From assembly GCA_045863235.1 (NCBI GenBank), contig BTUM01000077.1, positions 1-38,427 of the forward strand: 38,427 bases of DNA, written 5' to 3'. The position numbers and the translations under genes were made by a program. The DNA comes from Candidatus Xenobia bacterium. GTDB lineage: Bacteria > Vulcanimicrobiota > Xenobia > Xenobiales > QWHO01. Shown one piece after another: positions 21,188 through 28,261 of the stretch (position 1 is its first letter; each line of letters begins with the position of its first letter). The notes below the pieces were generated by a model. That model saw only the letters and a program-made list of their open reading frames with translations, was not told the DNA's origin and did no database searches.

Positions 21188-22657
21188 ATGGCAGCCTATC
21201 GCTACCGCTCCACTCCTCAGCCCCGTCTGGAGGGGCCTGCGACCTGCCTGCTGGATCGAGCCTGGGTATCGCTGGGCACCGACCCGGCCTGCGATCTCGT
21301 GCTCGACCAGGGCGAGGCGTTTCACGCTCGGGTCGAGCTGACCCCCAAGGGGGCCTACCTGGTCGATCTGGACACTCCCACCGGCACCTGGCTCAACGGC
21401 CGGCGCATCTCCCGGGCTCTCTTGCGCGACGGCGATCAGCTCTGCTTCGTTCCCCCCACCACCAGGCGCGGATCCGAGTTGGGAGTGCAACTCTCCCAGG
21501 AGACGCTGCCCGAGGGAGAGGTCACAAGGGCCGGCCATCTGCAGGTGCTGCTCGAGGTCGCCACCGAGCTGAGCCGTCCCGAGCAGCTCGAGGTGCGCCT
21601 GGACCAGATCCTGCGCCTGCTGCTCGAGCTCTTGCCCTTCGACCGGGCGGCCCTGCGCATCCTCAGGCAGCCCCACCAGGGCGAGCCCGTCTTCGAACGC
21701 CAGGCGTGGCGCACGCGCTATGGTCAAGACAGCGGGGAGGAGAGCCCTCAGCTGAGCGGCACGGTGATCGGCAAGGTGCTCGGCACCCAGCAGGGCGTGC
21801 GCATTCAAGATGCGCTCTATGACTCGGAGTTTGGCAAAGCCAGCAGCGTCAAGAGCCATCAGATTCGAACCTGTCTCTGCTTCCCGCTCAAGACGGCCCA
21901 CAGCCTCCTGGGGGTGCTCTACGCCGACGCCCAGAGCCAGCTCAAAGGTTTCAACGACGAGGATATGACCTTCTTCTCCGCCTTCGCTTCGCATGCGGCC
22001 GTGGCGGTGGAGAATGCCCTTTTGTCCGAGCGCATCCAGCACGAGGCGGTGGCCCGCTCACGGCTGCAGCGCTTCTTGCCGCCCAGCACGGTGGAGGAGA
22101 TGCTGGCCCGCCCTGAGGCCGCCTCCCTGGGCGGCAGCGAGCGGGAAGTCACCATCTTGTTTTGCGACATCCGCAACTTTACCGAGCTGTCCTGCCGGAT
22201 GCCCCCGGGGGAAGTGGCCGCCCTTCTGAACGGTTACTTTCCCGATATGGTGCGCATCGTGTTCAGTCACGGGGGCACGCTGGAGAAGTACATCGGAGAT
22301 GCCTTGATGGCGGTCTGGGGCGCTCCCCTGGCCATGGAGGGGCGTGCCCAGGTGGAAAAGGCCCTGGCGGCCGCCCGGGCCATGCGGCGAACCGTCCTGC
22401 AGTCTCAGCTCCCCTTCGAGGTGGGAATCGGCATCAACACCGGCCGCGCCTTCGTGGGCAACATCGGAGACGATTCCTTCATGCAGTATGCCGCCATCGG
22501 GGCGGCCACCAACCTGGCCGCCCGTCTCTGCTCCCAGGCCGGCCCGGGCGAGATTGTGCTCAGCCAGTCGAGTCAGGCGCTGCTCGGCTGCTCGGGGGAG
22601 GCCTCCGAGGAGCTGGTCAAGGGCTTCGCCGAGCCGGTCCGGGTTTTTCGAATCTGA
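21188..22657 (+). CDS. FHA-like, GAF and class III nucleotidyl cyclase protein
   Basis: TILFCDIRNFT, EKYIGDA, GIGINTG and NLAARL; GAF segment CFPL...LGVLYAD...FNDED. Confidence 0.9.
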   Translation: MAAYRYRSTPQPRLEGPATCLLDRAWVSLGTDPACDLVLDQGEAFHARVELTPKGAYLVDLDTPTGTWLNGRRISRALLRDGDQLCFVPPTTRRGSELGVQLSQETLPEGEVTRAGHLQVLLEVATELSRPEQLEVRLDQILRLLLELLPFDRAALRILRQPHQGEPVFERQAWRTRYGQDSGEESPQLSGTVIGKVLGTQQGVRIQDALYDSEFGKASSVKSHQIRTCLCFPLKTAHSLLGVLYADAQSQLKGFNDEDMTFFSAFASHAAVAVENALLSERIQHEAVARSRLQRFLPPSTVEEMLARPEAASLGGSEREVTILFCDIRNFTELSCRMPPGEVAALLNGYFPDMVRIVFSHGGTLEKYIGDALMAVWGAPLAMEGRAQVEKALAAARAMRRTVLQSQLPFEVGIGINTGRAFVGNIGDDSFMQYAAIGAATNLAARLCSQAGPGEIVLSQSSQALLGCSGEASEELVKGFAEPVRVFRI

Positions 22658-23573
22658 CCGTGGCCCGGCGCAGCCGGTCGCGCACCGCGGTCCAGAGCTC
22701 GTCTTCTCCCTGCGGGGCCAGCACGGCGATCAGCTCCATCCCGGCGTCGTCTGCCTCTCGCAAGCCGGCGTAAAGCCGCTCGGCGTAGCCTACGGGGTCG
22801 TCTGGCATGGCCAGAAATACTTCCGCAGACGGCTCCAGCTCCTGGCAGGCGAGCAGGGCGATTCGCTCCGCACTCGCCCTTACGGCCGGCCAGTCTTCCG
22901 CCTGCACCAGCACGGCCGGAGTGTGGGGAGCGTAGTGGCGCTCGAGCTGCCCCGGCGAGGCAGCCTGAGGACCGATGGCCAGCTCCACTTCCCGGTCCAG
23001 CACCTCGGCCAGCTGGCGGGCGGTGATCAGCCCGGGCCGCAGGATGCGAGGCGGGTCCAGGGCCAGCACGGTGGACTCGATGCCGCCCCGACAGGGCCCG
23101 CCATCCAGCACCAGCACCTGGTCGGGAGGAAAGTCGACGTGGGCTGCCGTGGTGGGGGAGATCTGGCCGCTGCGGTTGGCCGAGGGGCCCACCAGGGGCC
23201 GGCCGAAGCGGCGGAGCAGCTCCAGAGTGAGAGGATGGTCGGGGCAGCGCACCGCCACCAGCTCGCCCCCGGCGGTCACCTCGGCGGGCAGCTCCGGCCG
23301 GCGCGGCAAGACGAGCGTCAGCGGGCCGGGCCAGAAGGCCCGGGCCAGGCGCTCGGCCTCCTCGGGCCAATCGGCCACCACCTGGCGCGCCATGGCCGTG
23401 TCGGCCACGTGCACGATCAGGGGGTTCGTGGCCGGTCGGCCCTTCACTTGAAACACGCTGCGCACGGCGGCGGCGTTCAGCGCGTCGGCTCCCAGGCCGT
23501 AGACGGTCTCGGTGGGGAAGGCCACCAACGAGCCGGCGGCCAGGCGGTCCACGGCCGCTGCCAGGTCGATCAC
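22617..23573 (-). CDS. sua5: L-threonylcarbamoyladenylate synthase (Sua5/TsaC with SUA5 domain)
   Basis: VAFPTETVYGLGADA, KGRPATNPLIVHV, FWPGPLTLV, PSANRSG and SPGQLERHYAP. Confidence 0.95.
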   Translation of the reverse strand: MIDLAAAVDRLAAGSLVAFPTETVYGLGADALNAAAVRSVFQVKGRPATNPLIVHVADTAMARQVVADWPEEAERLARAFWPGPLTLVLPRRPELPAEVTAGGELVAVRCPDHPLTLELLRRFGRPLVGPSANRSGQISPTTAAHVDFPPDQVLVLDGGPCRGGIESTVLALDPPRILRPGLITARQLAEVLDREVELAIGPQAASPGQLERHYAPHTPAVLVQAEDWPAVRASAERIALLACQELEPSAEVFLAMPDDPVGYAERLYAGLREADDAGMELIAVLAPQGEDELWTAVRDRLRRATVRFEKPGPARRSP

Positions 23574-24371: not shown

Positions 24372-25070
24372 CTATCCTCCGCAGCCGGGACGAGGTTTGA
24401 TCTGTCGCAAGTACTGTTGGGCTTTCTCGCTCAGCCCGAGGCGGGCCAGGTCGAGTTGGGGCCCGTAGCCGCCCACATAGCCGTTGGCCCGAGCCACTGC
24501 GGTGGAGAGCACGAATTCCTGCTCTTTTGGGTAGATGGCTTTGAACTCGCGGTAGAGGGCCTGGGTGTTGCGCAGGTAGTACTTCTGGTGGTAGTCCTCG
24601 GCCAGCGTGAAGGTGCCCAGCGGCTCGATCGCGGTGTGGATTTTGCCGCGCTTTTGCTCCTCTTGCTCCCGGGTCTTCAGTGCCAGCTCCCGCTGGGCCT
24701 CGTCTTGCCACAGGATGGCCGAGCGGTACTGGCGTGCGTAGGCTGGCCGGGTGGGGTGAGTACCCTCCCAGAACAGGGCCAGCAGGTCGGCATAGCTGAT
24801 CTTCGCCGGATCGTAGCTGATGCGGATGCTCTCGGAATGATCGAAAAGGTCGTCGTAGGTCGGGTTGGCGGCCCGGCCGCCGGCATAGCCCACCTCGGTG
24901 CGAACCACTCCGGGGAGACTCCCGAACCGGGAGTCGGGGCCCCAGAATCAGCCCATGGAGAAGACGGCCACCTCGATTCGGGAGGGCTTTTCCAGGTCCA
25001 GCGCCGGCCGCGGGGTGTGACCCCCGGCCTCTAAGAACAGGATCGATAGCAGCACGATGATCCACCTCAT
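24372..25070 (-). CDS. msrA: Selenocysteine-containing peptide methionine sulfoxide reductase A with signal peptide (232 aa, U41)
   Basis: Frame from ATG 25070 reads MRWIIVLLSILFLEAGG...AVFSMG-TGA-FWGPDSRFG...VGYAGG...HSE...AEDYHQKY. TGA (24948-24950) occupies the Cys position of GCFWG. Confidence 0.9.
24909..24947 (-). promoter_or_regulatory. Bacterial SECIS-like hairpin
   Basis: mRNA after UGA: U UCUGGGG CCCC GACUCCCG GUU CGGGAGUC U CCCCGGA. Lower 7-bp stem, perfect 8-bp upper stem, and a G-initiated apical loop about 20 nt from UGA. Confidence 0.75.
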
Positions 25071-25126
25071 ATCCGGTGCAACGGTCCTCCGAGGGAAAAA
25101 GTTCCCGCCTGAGAGAAGTTGGCGCG

Positions 25127-28100
25127 ATGGCCTGCCCCAAGTGTGGTTTTGCCAGCCCCGCTGGTTTCAAGTTCTGCGGCCAGTGCGGCAGCCCTGTTCC
25201 CGAAGGTCCCGAGAGCGTCCGGCCTGCTGCCGAGCGGCGCCAGATCACGGTCATGTTCTGCGACCTGGTTGGCAGTACCTCGCTCTCGGAGAAGCTGGAC
25301 CCCGAGGAGTTGCGCGAGCTGGTGCAGAGCTACCAGGGCGTCTGCGCCGACCAGATCGAAGGCCACGGAGGCACCATCGCGCAGTACCTGGGCGACGGGG
25401 TGCTGGCTTATTTCGGCTATCCTCAGGCCCACCCCGACGACGCTCTGCGGGCGGTGCGGGCGGCTCGCGGCATCGTGGCCCGCATGCAGGCCCGAGACCT
25501 GGCCGTGCGGGTAGGTCTTCACACCGGCATGGTGGTGGTGGGCGAGATGGGGGCCGGCGAGCGCCGCGAGAACCTGGCCATGGGCGAGACTCCCAACGTG
25601 GCCGCCCGCCTGCAGTCGGCCGCCGAGCCCAACACGGTGGTGGCCAGCCGGGCCACCTGGACGCTGGCCGAGGATCGGGTGGAGTGGGAAGACCTGGGCG
25701 TGCTTGCGCTGAAGGGGCTCTCGCGCCCCTTTCGGGCCTACCGGGCGGTGCGCGAGCTGCAGCCGGCGGAATGGCGCTCGGCTGTGCGCCAGCGTCGCTC
25801 GCGCCTGCCCCTGGTAGGCCGGCAGAGCGAGCAGGAGCGGTTGCTCGAGCTGTGGCAGCAGGGCGCTCGCTCGGTGGGCATCACGGGCGGACCGGGAGTG
25901 GGCAAGACGCGTCTGGTGCAGTGGCTCAAGGACCACCTGGTGGGGCGCGAGAACTACGTGCTCTCGTTGTACTGCTCGCCCGAGTTCTCCACCAGCTCGT
26001 TCGCACCCGTGATCGACCTGCTCGAGCGCGAGTTCCGCCTGGCTCGACTGTCCGAGGAGGAGCGCTTCCCGCGTTTGCTGGAGGGCCTGGCTCGCAAGGC
26101 GCCCGGATTGGACCAGCGGACCGCCGCCCTGCTCGCTCGCCTGCTCGACTTGAAGCTTCCGGCCGGGGTCAGCCTGCCCAACCTGCAACCGCAGGCTCTG
26201 CGCCTGCTGACGCTGCAGGCACTGATCGACCTGTTCCGCCGCATGGGCAGCCAGCGACCTACCCTGTTCGTGGTGGAGGACCTGTTCCTGGCCGACCCGT
26301 CCACGCGCGAGTTCCTGCGCTTGCTTTCGGCCTCGCTGGACGAGACCCGCATCCTGCTGGTGGCCGTGGGCGACTGCCAGGACTGGCACAATCCGCTCGG
26401 CCTGGAGCTCAAGCGCCTGACTCGCGAGCAGTCCCAGGAGCTGGTGGCGGCCCTGACCGACAAGCCCCTGCCCGGCGAGGTCGTCGAGCGCCTGATCGAC
26501 CGCTGCGAGGGGATTCCCCTCTTCTTGCAAGAGTGCGCCCACCTGGCCCTGGAGTCCAGTGTTCTGGTGGAAGAGGAGGACTGCTGGAGTCTCACCGGTT
26601 CGCTCGATGAGCTGGGGATCCCGGTCACGCTGCAGGACTTCCTGACCTCCCACCTGGACCGGGCCGGGCCCTCCAAGGAGCTGGCCCAGAAGGCCTCGGT
26701 GGTGGGCCCTTACTTTGCCGCCGAGCTGCTCGAGCGCTACACGGGCTTGAGCCGCTCCACCCTGGAGGCCCACCTCGAGCGTCTCGTGCGCGAGGAGGTG
26801 CTGCTCCAGCTGGAGCTTGCTTTCGCGTTCTGCCACGGCATGCTGCAGCAGGCGGCCTACGGCTCGCTCCTCAAGTCGGTGCGCCAGGAGTGCCACCTGA
26901 AGCTGGCCGATACGTTGGAGGCCTACTTTCCTGAACTGGCCGAGAGCCAGCCCGAGGTGCTGGCCTACCACTACACGCGTGGCGCGCAGTTGGAAAGGGC
27001 CCTGGAGTGCTGGAGCCGGGCCGGGCAGCGGGCCCTGCAGGCCTCGGCCAACCAGGAGGCCATCGCGCACTTTCGCCAGGCCCTGGGCTTGCTCGAGACC
27101 ATGCCCCGACGCTACGAGGTCGAGCTGGGTGCCCTGGTGGGTCTGGCCTCGGCCCACATCCCCCTGCGCGGCTATGCCGCTCCCGAGGTGGCTGAGAACT
27201 ACTCCCGGGCGCGCGAGCTGTGTCGTCGCATGGGTGACGGGCCCGGGCTCTTCGAGGTGCTGGGCGGGTTGTGGGTCTACTACCTGGTTCGGGCCGAGCT
27301 CGACCAGGCCAGCGAGCTCTCGGGCCAGTTGCTGCGACTGGCCGCGGGGACGGGAGATGACCGGCTGGCCATCGTGGCCCACGCCGCCGCTGGCCAGACG
27401 TCCTTCTACCTGGGAGAGCTCGAGAGCTGCCGCAAGCACCTCGAGGAGGCGGTGGGCCGCTATCGTCCCGAGCAGCACCGCGGCCTGGCCTACGAGTACT
27501 TTCAGTCTGATCCCGCCGCCTGCTCTCTGTCTTATCTGGCCATGGCCCTCTGGCTGCAGGGCGAAGGCGAGCAGGCCCAGGAACGAGCCGAGCAAGCCCT
27601 GACCCTGGCTCGCCAGCAGAACCACCCCCACACCCTGGCCCACGTGCTGTTCTTCGACGTCTGGCTGCAGTACCACCGGGGCGACCTGGAGCGGGCCCGG
27701 CGGCTGGTGAGCGAGCTGGCCGCGCTGGCCGGCGAGCAAGCCTTTCCCTTCTGGCATGGCCTGGCCGTGGCGATGGAAGGCTGCTTCGATCTCCTGGGCC
27801 CCGACCCGGCAGCGGCCGCCGCCCGGATCGGACAGGGCCTTCAGGTGGTGTCCGCCACCGGCGCCAAGCTCGGCCACACGTGGTTTGTGGGCGTGCTGGC
27901 CCAGCTTCAGGCCGTGGGCGGCAATCCGGCTGCCGGTCTGGAGGTGCTGGCCGGCGGTCTGGCCGCCTGCAGTCAGGAGCGCTGGTGGGAGAGCGAGCTC
28001 TACCGCCTGCAGGGCGACCTGCTGGCTCGGAGCGGCGCCAGCACTACCCGGGTGGAAGCGGCCTATGACCGGGCCCTGCAGGTGGCCCGCGAGCTGGGCG

Positions 28101-28261
28101 AGCGGAATCTCGAGCTGCGTGCCGCCTGCTCGCTGGGCGAGCTCTGGCGGCAGGCGGGTGGCCACGCGGTGGCGCGCGACCTGGTGCAGAGCGTGCTGGC
28201 CGGCCTCAAGGACGAGGCCAGTCCCGATCAGCAGCGGGCCCGGGAGCTCCTGGCTGGATGA
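25127..28261 (+). CDS. Zinc ribbon, class III cyclase, AAA/STAND ATPase and TPR protein
   Basis: CPKC..CGQC, ERRQITVMFCDLVGST, YLGDG, NVAARL, Walker A GGPGVGKT, Walker B-like FVVEDL and a TPR-like C-terminal half. Confidence 0.92.
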   Translation: MACPKCGFASPAGFKFCGQCGSPVPEGPESVRPAAERRQITVMFCDLVGSTSLSEKLDPEELRELVQSYQGVCADQIEGHGGTIAQYLGDGVLAYFGYPQAHPDDALRAVRAARGIVARMQARDLAVRVGLHTGMVVVGEMGAGERRENLAMGETPNVAARLQSAAEPNTVVASRATWTLAEDRVEWEDLGVLALKGLSRPFRAYRAVRELQPAEWRSAVRQRRSRLPLVGRQSEQERLLELWQQGARSVGITGGPGVGKTRLVQWLKDHLVGRENYVLSLYCSPEFSTSSFAPVIDLLEREFRLARLSEEERFPRLLEGLARKAPGLDQRTAALLARLLDLKLPAGVSLPNLQPQALRLLTLQALIDLFRRMGSQRPTLFVVEDLFLADPSTREFLRLLSASLDETRILLVAVGDCQDWHNPLGLELKRLTREQSQELVAALTDKPLPGEVVERLIDRCEGIPLFLQECAHLALESSVLVEEEDCWSLTGSLDELGIPVTLQDFLTSHLDRAGPSKELAQKASVVGPYFAAELLERYTGLSRSTLEAHLERLVREEVLLQLELAFAFCHGMLQQAAYGSLLKSVRQECHLKLADTLEAYFPELAESQPEVLAYHYTRGAQLERALECWSRAGQRALQASANQEAIAHFRQALGLLETMPRRYEVELGALVGLASAHIPLRGYAAPEVAENYSRARELCRRMGDGPGLFEVLGGLWVYYLVRAELDQASELSGQLLRLAAGTGDDRLAIVAHAAAGQTSFYLGELESCRKHLEEAVGRYRPEQHRGLAYEYFQSDPAACSLSYLAMALWLQGEGEQAQERAEQALTLARQQNHPHTLAHVLFFDVWLQYHRGDLERARRLVSELAALAGEQAFPFWHGLAVAMEGCFDLLGPDPAAAAARIGQGLQVVSATGAKLGHTWFVGVLAQLQAVGGNPAAGLEVLAGGLAACSQERWWESELYRLQGDLLARSGASTTRVEAAYDRALQVARELGERNLELRAACSLGELWRQAGGHAVARDLVQSVLAGLKDEASPDQQRARELLAG

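Follow-up and report, generated by a model that had tools for sequence, protein, structure and literature searches.

The only selenocysteine (Sec)-containing methionine sulfoxide reductase A (MsrA) of a bacterium to have been studied biochemically is the cytoplasmic enzyme of Clostridium (Alkaliphilus) oremlandii OhILAs, here CoMsrA (PDB 4LWJ, 4LWK, 4LWL, 4LWM and 4U66; PMC4333827, PMC4479559), a protein of 209 residues that has no Cys, is classed as a 1-Cys type, and is described in PMC4479559 as being reduced by glutaredoxin or through a dimer, and not by thioredoxin. MsrA with a GUFWG/H motif is listed among the experimentally verified bacterial selenoproteins in Table 1 and the text of a 2026 review (PMC13188914). 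Two other groups of enzymes bear on what follows. In E. coli-type MsrA, C-terminal recycling cysteines are the rule, according to PMC4479559 and the titles of PDB entries 2IEM, 6YEV and 7OT4; and extracytoplasmic MsrA and MsrB are reported for Neisseria (PilB), Haemophilus influenzae (MsrAB) and Streptococcus pneumoniae (MsrAB2 with Etrx and CcdA) in PMC6210582, PMC9404787 and PMC3914529. Here, we describe an msrA gene on the minus strand of contig BTUM01000077.1 (positions 1 to 38,427, referred to as the window) from the Candidatus Xenobia bacterium assembly GCA_045863235.1. TGA at codon 41 of this gene is very probably decoded as Sec in an intact, two-domain msrA, and the predicted protein adds to the CoMsrA plan a hydrophobic leader and a single Cys, Cys230, on a C-terminal tail.

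We find that the read-through product matches the Pfam PMSR family (PF01625) with an E-value of 2.8e-40 and 138.5 bits against a cut-off of 23.7, and that a sequence search of the PDB returns the C. oremlandii selenoprotein MsrA entries as top matches (E 2e-52, residues 30-202). An AlphaFold2 model, derived from a 40-sequence alignment, has a predicted local distance difference test score (pLDDT) of 92.2, and its top Foldseek match is 4LWJ (205-residue chain), with 199 aligned columns, a template modelling (TM) score of 0.87 normalised to the target and 46% identity, an alignment that takes in the additional C-terminal helical domain characteristic of this subtype. The active-site residues listed for CoMsrA in PMC4333827, Tyr47, Glu55, Gln89, Tyr90, His137 and Tyr140, correspond to Y72, E80, Q114, Y115, H161 and Y164 of the window protein and are invariant or nearly so in the 40-sequence alignment. 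Pfam PF20939 scores 17.3 bits in the window protein, below its 23.7 cut-off, and 28.4 bits in the orthologue from genome G004. By sequence and model, then, the protein is a two-domain MsrA of the CoMsrA type: like CoMsrA, it has Sec predicted at the catalytic position of GUFWG, and a PMSR domain followed by a helical domain. It also shares family and recoding logic with the bacterial Sec-MsrA proteins catalogued in PMC13188914, so that neither the family nor the recoding is new. The differences lie at the two ends. The catalytic residue of CoMsrA is at position 16, so that it has no leader, whereas the window protein has a hydrophobic leader of 17 residues; and with Cys230 the window protein falls outside the 1-Cys type.

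The gene is easily missed. A sequence-only reading of the window had noted that the open reading frame (ORF) track starts msrA at 24908, downstream of the active site, that the real frame from ATG 25070 has TGA at the catalytic codon, and that the sole Cys lies in the terminal PGCGG, and each of these observations holds. The mechanical ORF list splits the gene into a 40-residue ORF (24948-25070) and a 178-residue ORF that begins with GTG at 24908, past the active site; in the minus-strand frame from ATG 25070, codon 41 (24950-24948) is TGA in the context S-M-G-TGA-F-W-G; and residue 230 is the only Cys apart from the Sec position. The truncated 178-residue form is also on record for relatives (e.g., P0002 in the protein collection), and 7 of the best 120 database homologues start downstream of the active site. 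Trp stands at the Sec position (G-W-F-W-G) in 18 of 112 full-length homologues, e.g., P0009, P0013, P0016, P0026, P0047, P0063 and P0077; judged from their sequences, these are most likely Sec genes that were translated with TGA as Trp. Standard gene calling thus splits or truncates Sec-msrA, and the selenoprotein gene is hidden from ordinary annotation.

That mechanical ORF calling and public gene calls both split the gene speaks for another explanation, in which the TGA either acts as a genuine stop or arose by sequencing error, and the locus is a pseudogene or two small ORFs. We consider this extremely improbable: 16 related genes and 52 loci of other phyla share the TGA, the same base call is made in three independent runs, reading-frame conservation is intact in both halves, a 178-residue product would be without the catalytic residue, and, as detailed below, a Sec-specific hairpin covaries and the genome encodes the full Sec machinery. 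Three other genomes of the same genus have the same full-length frame with a single TGA (92, 91 and 70% protein identity), and the TGA is at the same codon in 12 additional genes from a sister family of this order and in one genome (G109) of another family of the same class, which gives the total of 16 relatives' genes beyond the window gene. Among the 301 genomes sampled in the organism's own phylum, TGA-containing matches are confined to its own order and one other family of the class, and one weaker match elsewhere in the sample bears TAG, not TGA. Outside the phylum, we took the best 80 loci from one genome per prokaryote species, which span Planctomycetota, Acidobacteriota, Chloroflexota, Desulfobacterota, Firmicutes, Actinobacteria and others; a script found the motif in 72 of the 80, and the catalytic codon of these classifiable loci is TGA in 52, TGT in 14 and TGC in 6. 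The Sec-MsrA family is known and widespread, with Sec forms the majority among these best species-representative matches.

Independent assemblies and the code of the organism bear on the same question. Three runs, each from a different study, gave contigs that bridge 24948-24950; no base difference is listed there, and the contigs differ in base from the window at 24648, 24651, 24659, 24744, 24762, 24777, 24819 and 24969; a fourth run (X3, DNA) leaves 24934-25031 uncovered and so is uninformative on the TGA. Those of the contigs that come from RNA libraries attest to the presence of the sequence and are no proof of transcription, which must be set against the reading. TGA closes 1924 of 3021 open frames of at least 500 codons and is the commonest stop of the genome, so that it is not reassigned genome-wide; tRNA-Sec alone among the tRNAs has a UCA anticodon, and the sole tRNA-Trp has CCA. 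The genome (8.36 Mb in 166 contigs, 97.6% complete) carries a selD-selA-selB cluster at about 78.9-87.4 kb of contig C23, with each match above its curated threshold and an in-frame TGA in selD at the usual Sec site, and aragorn finds one tRNA-Sec(tca) at 26260-26351 of the same contig, 52 kb from the sel cluster.

The TGA is followed by a candidate bacterial Sec insertion sequence (bSECIS). According to the Fig. 2 legend of PMC13188914, such elements have a loop of 3-9 nt with a G within its first two positions, a stem of 4-16 bp, 16-37 nt from UGA to loop and a minimum free energy of no more than -7.5 kcal/mol. The core stem in msrA begins 12 nt past the TGA, and the hairpin, with its GUU loop, 8 bp, UGA-to-loop spacing of 20 nt and -12.7 kcal/mol, lies within all four of these bounds. 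Geometry of this kind is common in the GC-rich window, however: 36 of 876 window TGA triplets pass the same geometric test (stem of at least 8 bp, G-led loop, right distance after TGA), and the z-score of the hairpin fold is only -2.1. Both figures count against the element as an independent sign of recoding; the hairpin alone is weak, and its weight comes from conservation and covariation.

Conservation was measured at two depths. Across the order (16 Sec genes), 93.8% of the cells of the upper helix are paired, and two pairs are changed on both sides; for the lower helix the figure is 84.7%, with no compensatory change, and by this alignment only some members of the order conserve the lower stem. 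When the 52 Sec forms from other phyla are added, giving 68 rows, the loop G never varies, and covariation is seen at three pairs: 23-27 (GC in 33, AU in 20), 19-31 (UA in 29, GC in 15) and 18-32 (six standard pair types). On one side of pair 23-27 lies the middle base of a codon for Arg (CGG) or Gln (CAG), and on the other the third position of the Phe codon that follows (UUC or UUU), where the change is synonymous. Covariation scores 0.247 in this alignment; shuffles score 0.124 ± 0.013, with 0 of 500 reaching 0.247, and registers slid by 1-3 columns score 0.034-0.128. On average, 6.46 of the 8 pairs are formed in 69 Sec genes, of which 68 have the GTT loop, as compared to 2.18 of 8 in a Cys-form control (n=11) that includes two genes with the same peptide class but other synonymous codons. 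The hairpin is thus conserved in Sec forms, with compensatory changes, and is missing from Cys forms. Rfam matched no family, its two hits being far under gathering scores, and the genome's own selD hairpin gave no useful comparison with that of msrA.

The sequence-only reading had proposed that UGA is recoded as Sec here, and this proposal is supported by the conservation of the TGA, the covarying hairpin, the sel machinery and the concordant contigs. Of the checks that it had suggested, a search of the genome finds selA, selB, selD and tRNA-Sec, all on contig C23; orthologues alternate between TGA and TGC or TGT at the catalytic codon; and the hairpin lies within published bSECIS bounds. TGC or TGT in the reads, which it had named as the finding that would speak against recoding, was not found, since contigs of the three runs carry TGA. 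Its reliance on a two-stem hairpin with a G-led loop directly after the TGA stands in part: the hairpin is there, but taken alone it does not rise above chance.

The N-terminal leader is the first departure from CoMsrA. Compared to the three genus relatives, codons 1-17 have 11 synonymous and 2 conservative changes, and the DNA upstream of the ATG diverges, a pattern which indicates that the leader is translated and constrained. The model has a helix at residues 2-13 (pLDDT 63-67), and the A-x-G before His18 fits the -3/-1 rule for signal peptide cleavage. Distant relatives retain a basic N-terminus and a hydrophobic stretch, with the sequence itself not kept; this is how signal peptides behave and makes export likely. 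An N-terminal hydrophobic segment is found in 70 of the 112 full-length database homologues, 29 of the 70 with a lipobox-like pattern, and, by a hydropathy test that is crude, as is its choice of start, in 30 of the 52 Sec forms from other phyla. From these sequence features we consider export across the cytoplasmic membrane, which the sequence-only reading had also proposed, likely, and the chances that the leader is a cleaved signal rather than an anchor to be about even.

Several observations weigh against export. The hydrophobic core is short at 11 residues; codon 6 is a GTG which, with a Shine-Dalgarno-like GAGGTG ahead of it, offers an alternative start that would be without the n-region Arg; and both MsrA genes found in the 97.6%-complete genome have hydrophobic N-termini. 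The other MsrA, of the Cys type (GCFWC; C70:212-694, L038/L066), has a hydrophobic segment at its N-terminus, and the assembly yielded no MsrA that is plainly cytoplasmic, so that export of both would leave the cytoplasm without MsrA, which would be odd. The otherwise missing cytoplasmic MsrA and the codon 6 GTG are also what favours the alternative that the hydrophobic N-terminus is no export signal, the enzyme being cytoplasmic by virtue of a later start or a cytoplasm-facing anchor. We regard this as unlikely. Codons 1-17 accumulate almost only synonymous changes and hence are translated, and a protein started at codon 6 would still be hydrophobic at its N-terminus. After that, the frame offers as starts GTG at codon 34 and ATG at codon 39, just 7 and 2 residues before Sec, which is shorter than in any natural leaderless form seen (8-13 residues); they would cut into strand 33-39 of the model, and no Shine-Dalgarno-like sequence is seen upstream of either. 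Homologues with lipobox-like leaders are, moreover, common.

The second departure is the tail. Cys-Gly-Gly stands at the very end of 8 of 8 close relatives, one of them a 232-residue Cys-form homologue with the same leader, and the preceding residue varies (G, K, R, S or T); thus, while the window protein does end in PGCGG, the C-terminal GCGG named by the sequence-only reading reduces to x-Cys-Gly-Gly as the conserved motif. In the model, tail residues 224-232 are coil with pLDDT down to 43, and several distant lineages likewise have Cys motifs close to the C-terminus. The arrangement resembles that of the E. coli and bovine 3-Cys and the M. tuberculosis 2-Cys MsrA, in that oxidation at the catalytic residue would be resolved by a Cys carried on a flexible C-terminal tail, and the bond passed to thioredoxin. 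It differs from them in that their tail comes directly after the catalytic domain and the window tail after an extra helical domain, in having one tail Cys rather than two, and in that the bond would be Se-S. The mobile C-terminal redox tail of mammalian thioredoxin reductase, Gly-Cys-Sec-Gly, also ends in small residues and works alike on an unrelated fold; there, Sec is in the tail, and here it would be in the active site with Cys in the tail. As the sequence-only reading had suggested, we find it plausible, from sequence and model, that Cys230 is the resolving residue by way of a Sec41-Cys230 selenenylsulfide, and put this at an even chance and no higher because most homologues have no tail Cys and wide samples show no link to the leader.

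The counts that hold this estimate down are as follows. A tail Cys is present in 18 of 70 database homologues with a leader and 9 of 42 without, and in 5 of 30 Sec forms of other phyla with a leader versus 5 of 22 without; many leader-bearing relatives have no tail Cys at all. All of this weighs against a functional pairing of leader and tail. A linkage of this kind had been considered from class-level relatives (tail Cys in 12 of 17 with a leader and in 0 of 5 leaderless), a count made by eye on genes that are kin and not independent, and was dropped as it fails in the wide samples. Genome G013 has three paralogues of this MsrA type (L017, L033 and L035), of which two carry TGA and the other TGC; in two of the three, a Cys-x3-4-Cys pair just past the N-terminal hydrophobic segment takes the place of a tail Cys.

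An enzyme that is a real Sec-MsrA, exported or anchored, could also turn over without Cys230 as resolving residue, through a 1-Cys-type cycle with an external reductant or a transient dimer, leaving the tail Cys for a mixed disulfide with a partner, a metal contact, or nothing. We give this a substantial probability, if one somewhat below even. The characterised relative, which has no Cys, turns over by glutaredoxin or a Cys16-Cys16 dimer as described in PMC4479559; the tail Cys is missing in 85 of the 112 homologues and 42 of the 52 Sec forms; and the tail follows the helical domain, unlike that of E. coli-type enzymes, which follows the catalytic domain. Against it stand the invariance of C-G-G in all eight close relatives amid variable neighbouring residues, the tail Cys motifs of several distant lineages, and the position of Cys230 on a disordered tail, like that of recycling cysteines.

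With Cys230 as a resolving residue, the following cycle may be proposed. SelB and tRNA-Sec would act at the coding-region SECIS hairpin to decode UGA, and the leader would carry the protein across the cytoplasmic membrane, where it would serve in the repair of envelope proteins. Sec41 would attack the sulfoxide of Met-S-O and become a selenenic acid, a step that belongs to the mechanism of the family and has been experimentally established for the C. oremlandii enzyme. Cys230 on the flexible tail would attack the selenenic acid to give the Sec41-Cys230 selenenylsulfide, which a thioredoxin-fold protein would then reduce.

Candidate partners are encoded elsewhere in the genome. Three thioredoxin-family matches have one in-frame TGA each (C4:132701-132910, C86:10310-10555 and C45:14007-14285), with the motif W-U-G-P-C in two and W-U-A-S-C in one; leaders of the signal or lipoprotein type are present in two of them, and the remaining match forms the C-terminal portion of a very long open frame. 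There is a 757-residue DsbD_TM protein, and of two MsrB genes, one has a signal-like leader (C16:106855-107202 listed). It counts against the proposed cycle that no thioredoxin, CcdA, DsbD or MsrB adjoins msrA in 13 loci (Pfam, 86 ORFs). That the Sec-thioredoxins serve MsrA is speculation. We think it rather doubtful that the reductant is the leader-bearing Sec-thioredoxins of the same genome, fed by a DsbD-type conduit, and distinctly unlikely that there is a full envelope selenium relay, in which the Sec41-Cys230 bond of an exported Sec-MsrA would be recycled by exported W-U-G-P-C thioredoxins with electrons via DsbD. Such a relay, if true, would make up a redox chain outside the cytoplasm in which two successive steps use Sec.

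The known extracytoplasmic MsrA/MsrB systems offer a partial parallel. They carry out repair outside the cytoplasm with electrons supplied via DsbD or CcdA and thioredoxin-fold proteins, and the window genome has DsbD_TM, leader-bearing thioredoxins and MsrB. The enzymes of those systems use Cys and are fusions of a one-domain MsrA with MsrB and/or a thioredoxin domain, whereas the window MsrA is stand-alone and two-domain, is predicted to use Sec, and has no adjoining redox partner. The main text of PMC13188914 contains no occurrence of signal peptide, periplasm or export, and literature searches on selenoprotein MsrA and on periplasmic or signal-peptide selenoproteins, at the level of abstracts, returned no description of an exported or tail-Cys Sec-MsrA.

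A leader and an invariant C-terminal Cys-Gly-Gly make this protein a modest variant of a characterised enzyme, which will not surprise specialists; it adds incrementally to a known family, and genomes commonly encode Sec forms with a leader. Its interest is that, set beside CoMsrA, the leader-bearing tail-Cys form is a natural test of whether a resolving Cys makes the selenoenzyme compatible with thioredoxin. A second question that it raises is whether selenoenzymes are used for envelope protein repair. The features of the gene are collected in Table 1.

Table 1. Positions of the Sec-msrA gene and its features in the window
Feature	Position	Strand	Description
Sec-msrA coding sequence	24372..25070	minus	232 codons plus TAG stop at 24374-24372; ATG start at 25070
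Leader, codons 1-17	25020..25070	minus	Met-Arg-Trp, 11-residue hydrophobic core, Glu-Ala-Gly-Gly; predicted Sec-type signal peptide
MsrA catalytic domain (PMSR), residues 35-173	24552..24968	minus	Pfam; active-site residues conserved
TGA, predicted selenocysteine codon 41	24948..24950	minus	Catalytic position of G-x-FWG; aligns with Cys16 of the C. oremlandii enzyme
Extended two-stem form of the hairpin	24907..24948	minus	Lower stem around the core; -26.2 kcal/mol
bSECIS core hairpin	24917..24935	minus	8-bp stem 24935-24928/24924-24917; GUU loop 24927-24925; -12.7 kcal/mol
GTG, start of the called 178-residue ORF	24906..24908	minus	Mechanical ORF list
C-terminal helical domain, residues about 174-223	24402..24551	minus	Foldseek versus 4LWJ; model helices to residue 223
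TGC, Cys230, third residue from the C-terminus	24381..24383	minus	Only Cys; candidate resolving residue

Fusions of MsrB to a two-domain MsrA also occur (P0021 and P0033; L073), at least one of them with TGA at the MsrA catalytic codon. Downstream of msrA in the window, on the minus strand, are an acyltransferase (PF01553; 23570-24343) and a Sua5/TsaC-type threonylcarbamoyl-AMP synthase (22617-23573); within the genus, all three loci examined, those of the window and two relatives, have the acyltransferase after msrA, and the loci outside the genus do not. A promoter scan found none, and two terminator-like sites are within chance. The divergent neighbour on the plus strand (25076-28261) is a protein of 1061 residues with zinc-ribbon, adenylate/guanylate cyclase, AAA_16 and TPR domains; the GTG listed as its start is only 6 nt from the msrA ATG, so that the true start is probably an ATG about 50 nt further in. 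A 17-nt motif with a short GGGAA/TTCCC inverted repeat, at about 25094-25110 on the minus strand and 24-40 nt ahead of the msrA ATG, is identical in all four genus members within divergent flanking upstream DNA, and may be a regulatory site in a short divergent region shared with the cyclase-type gene.

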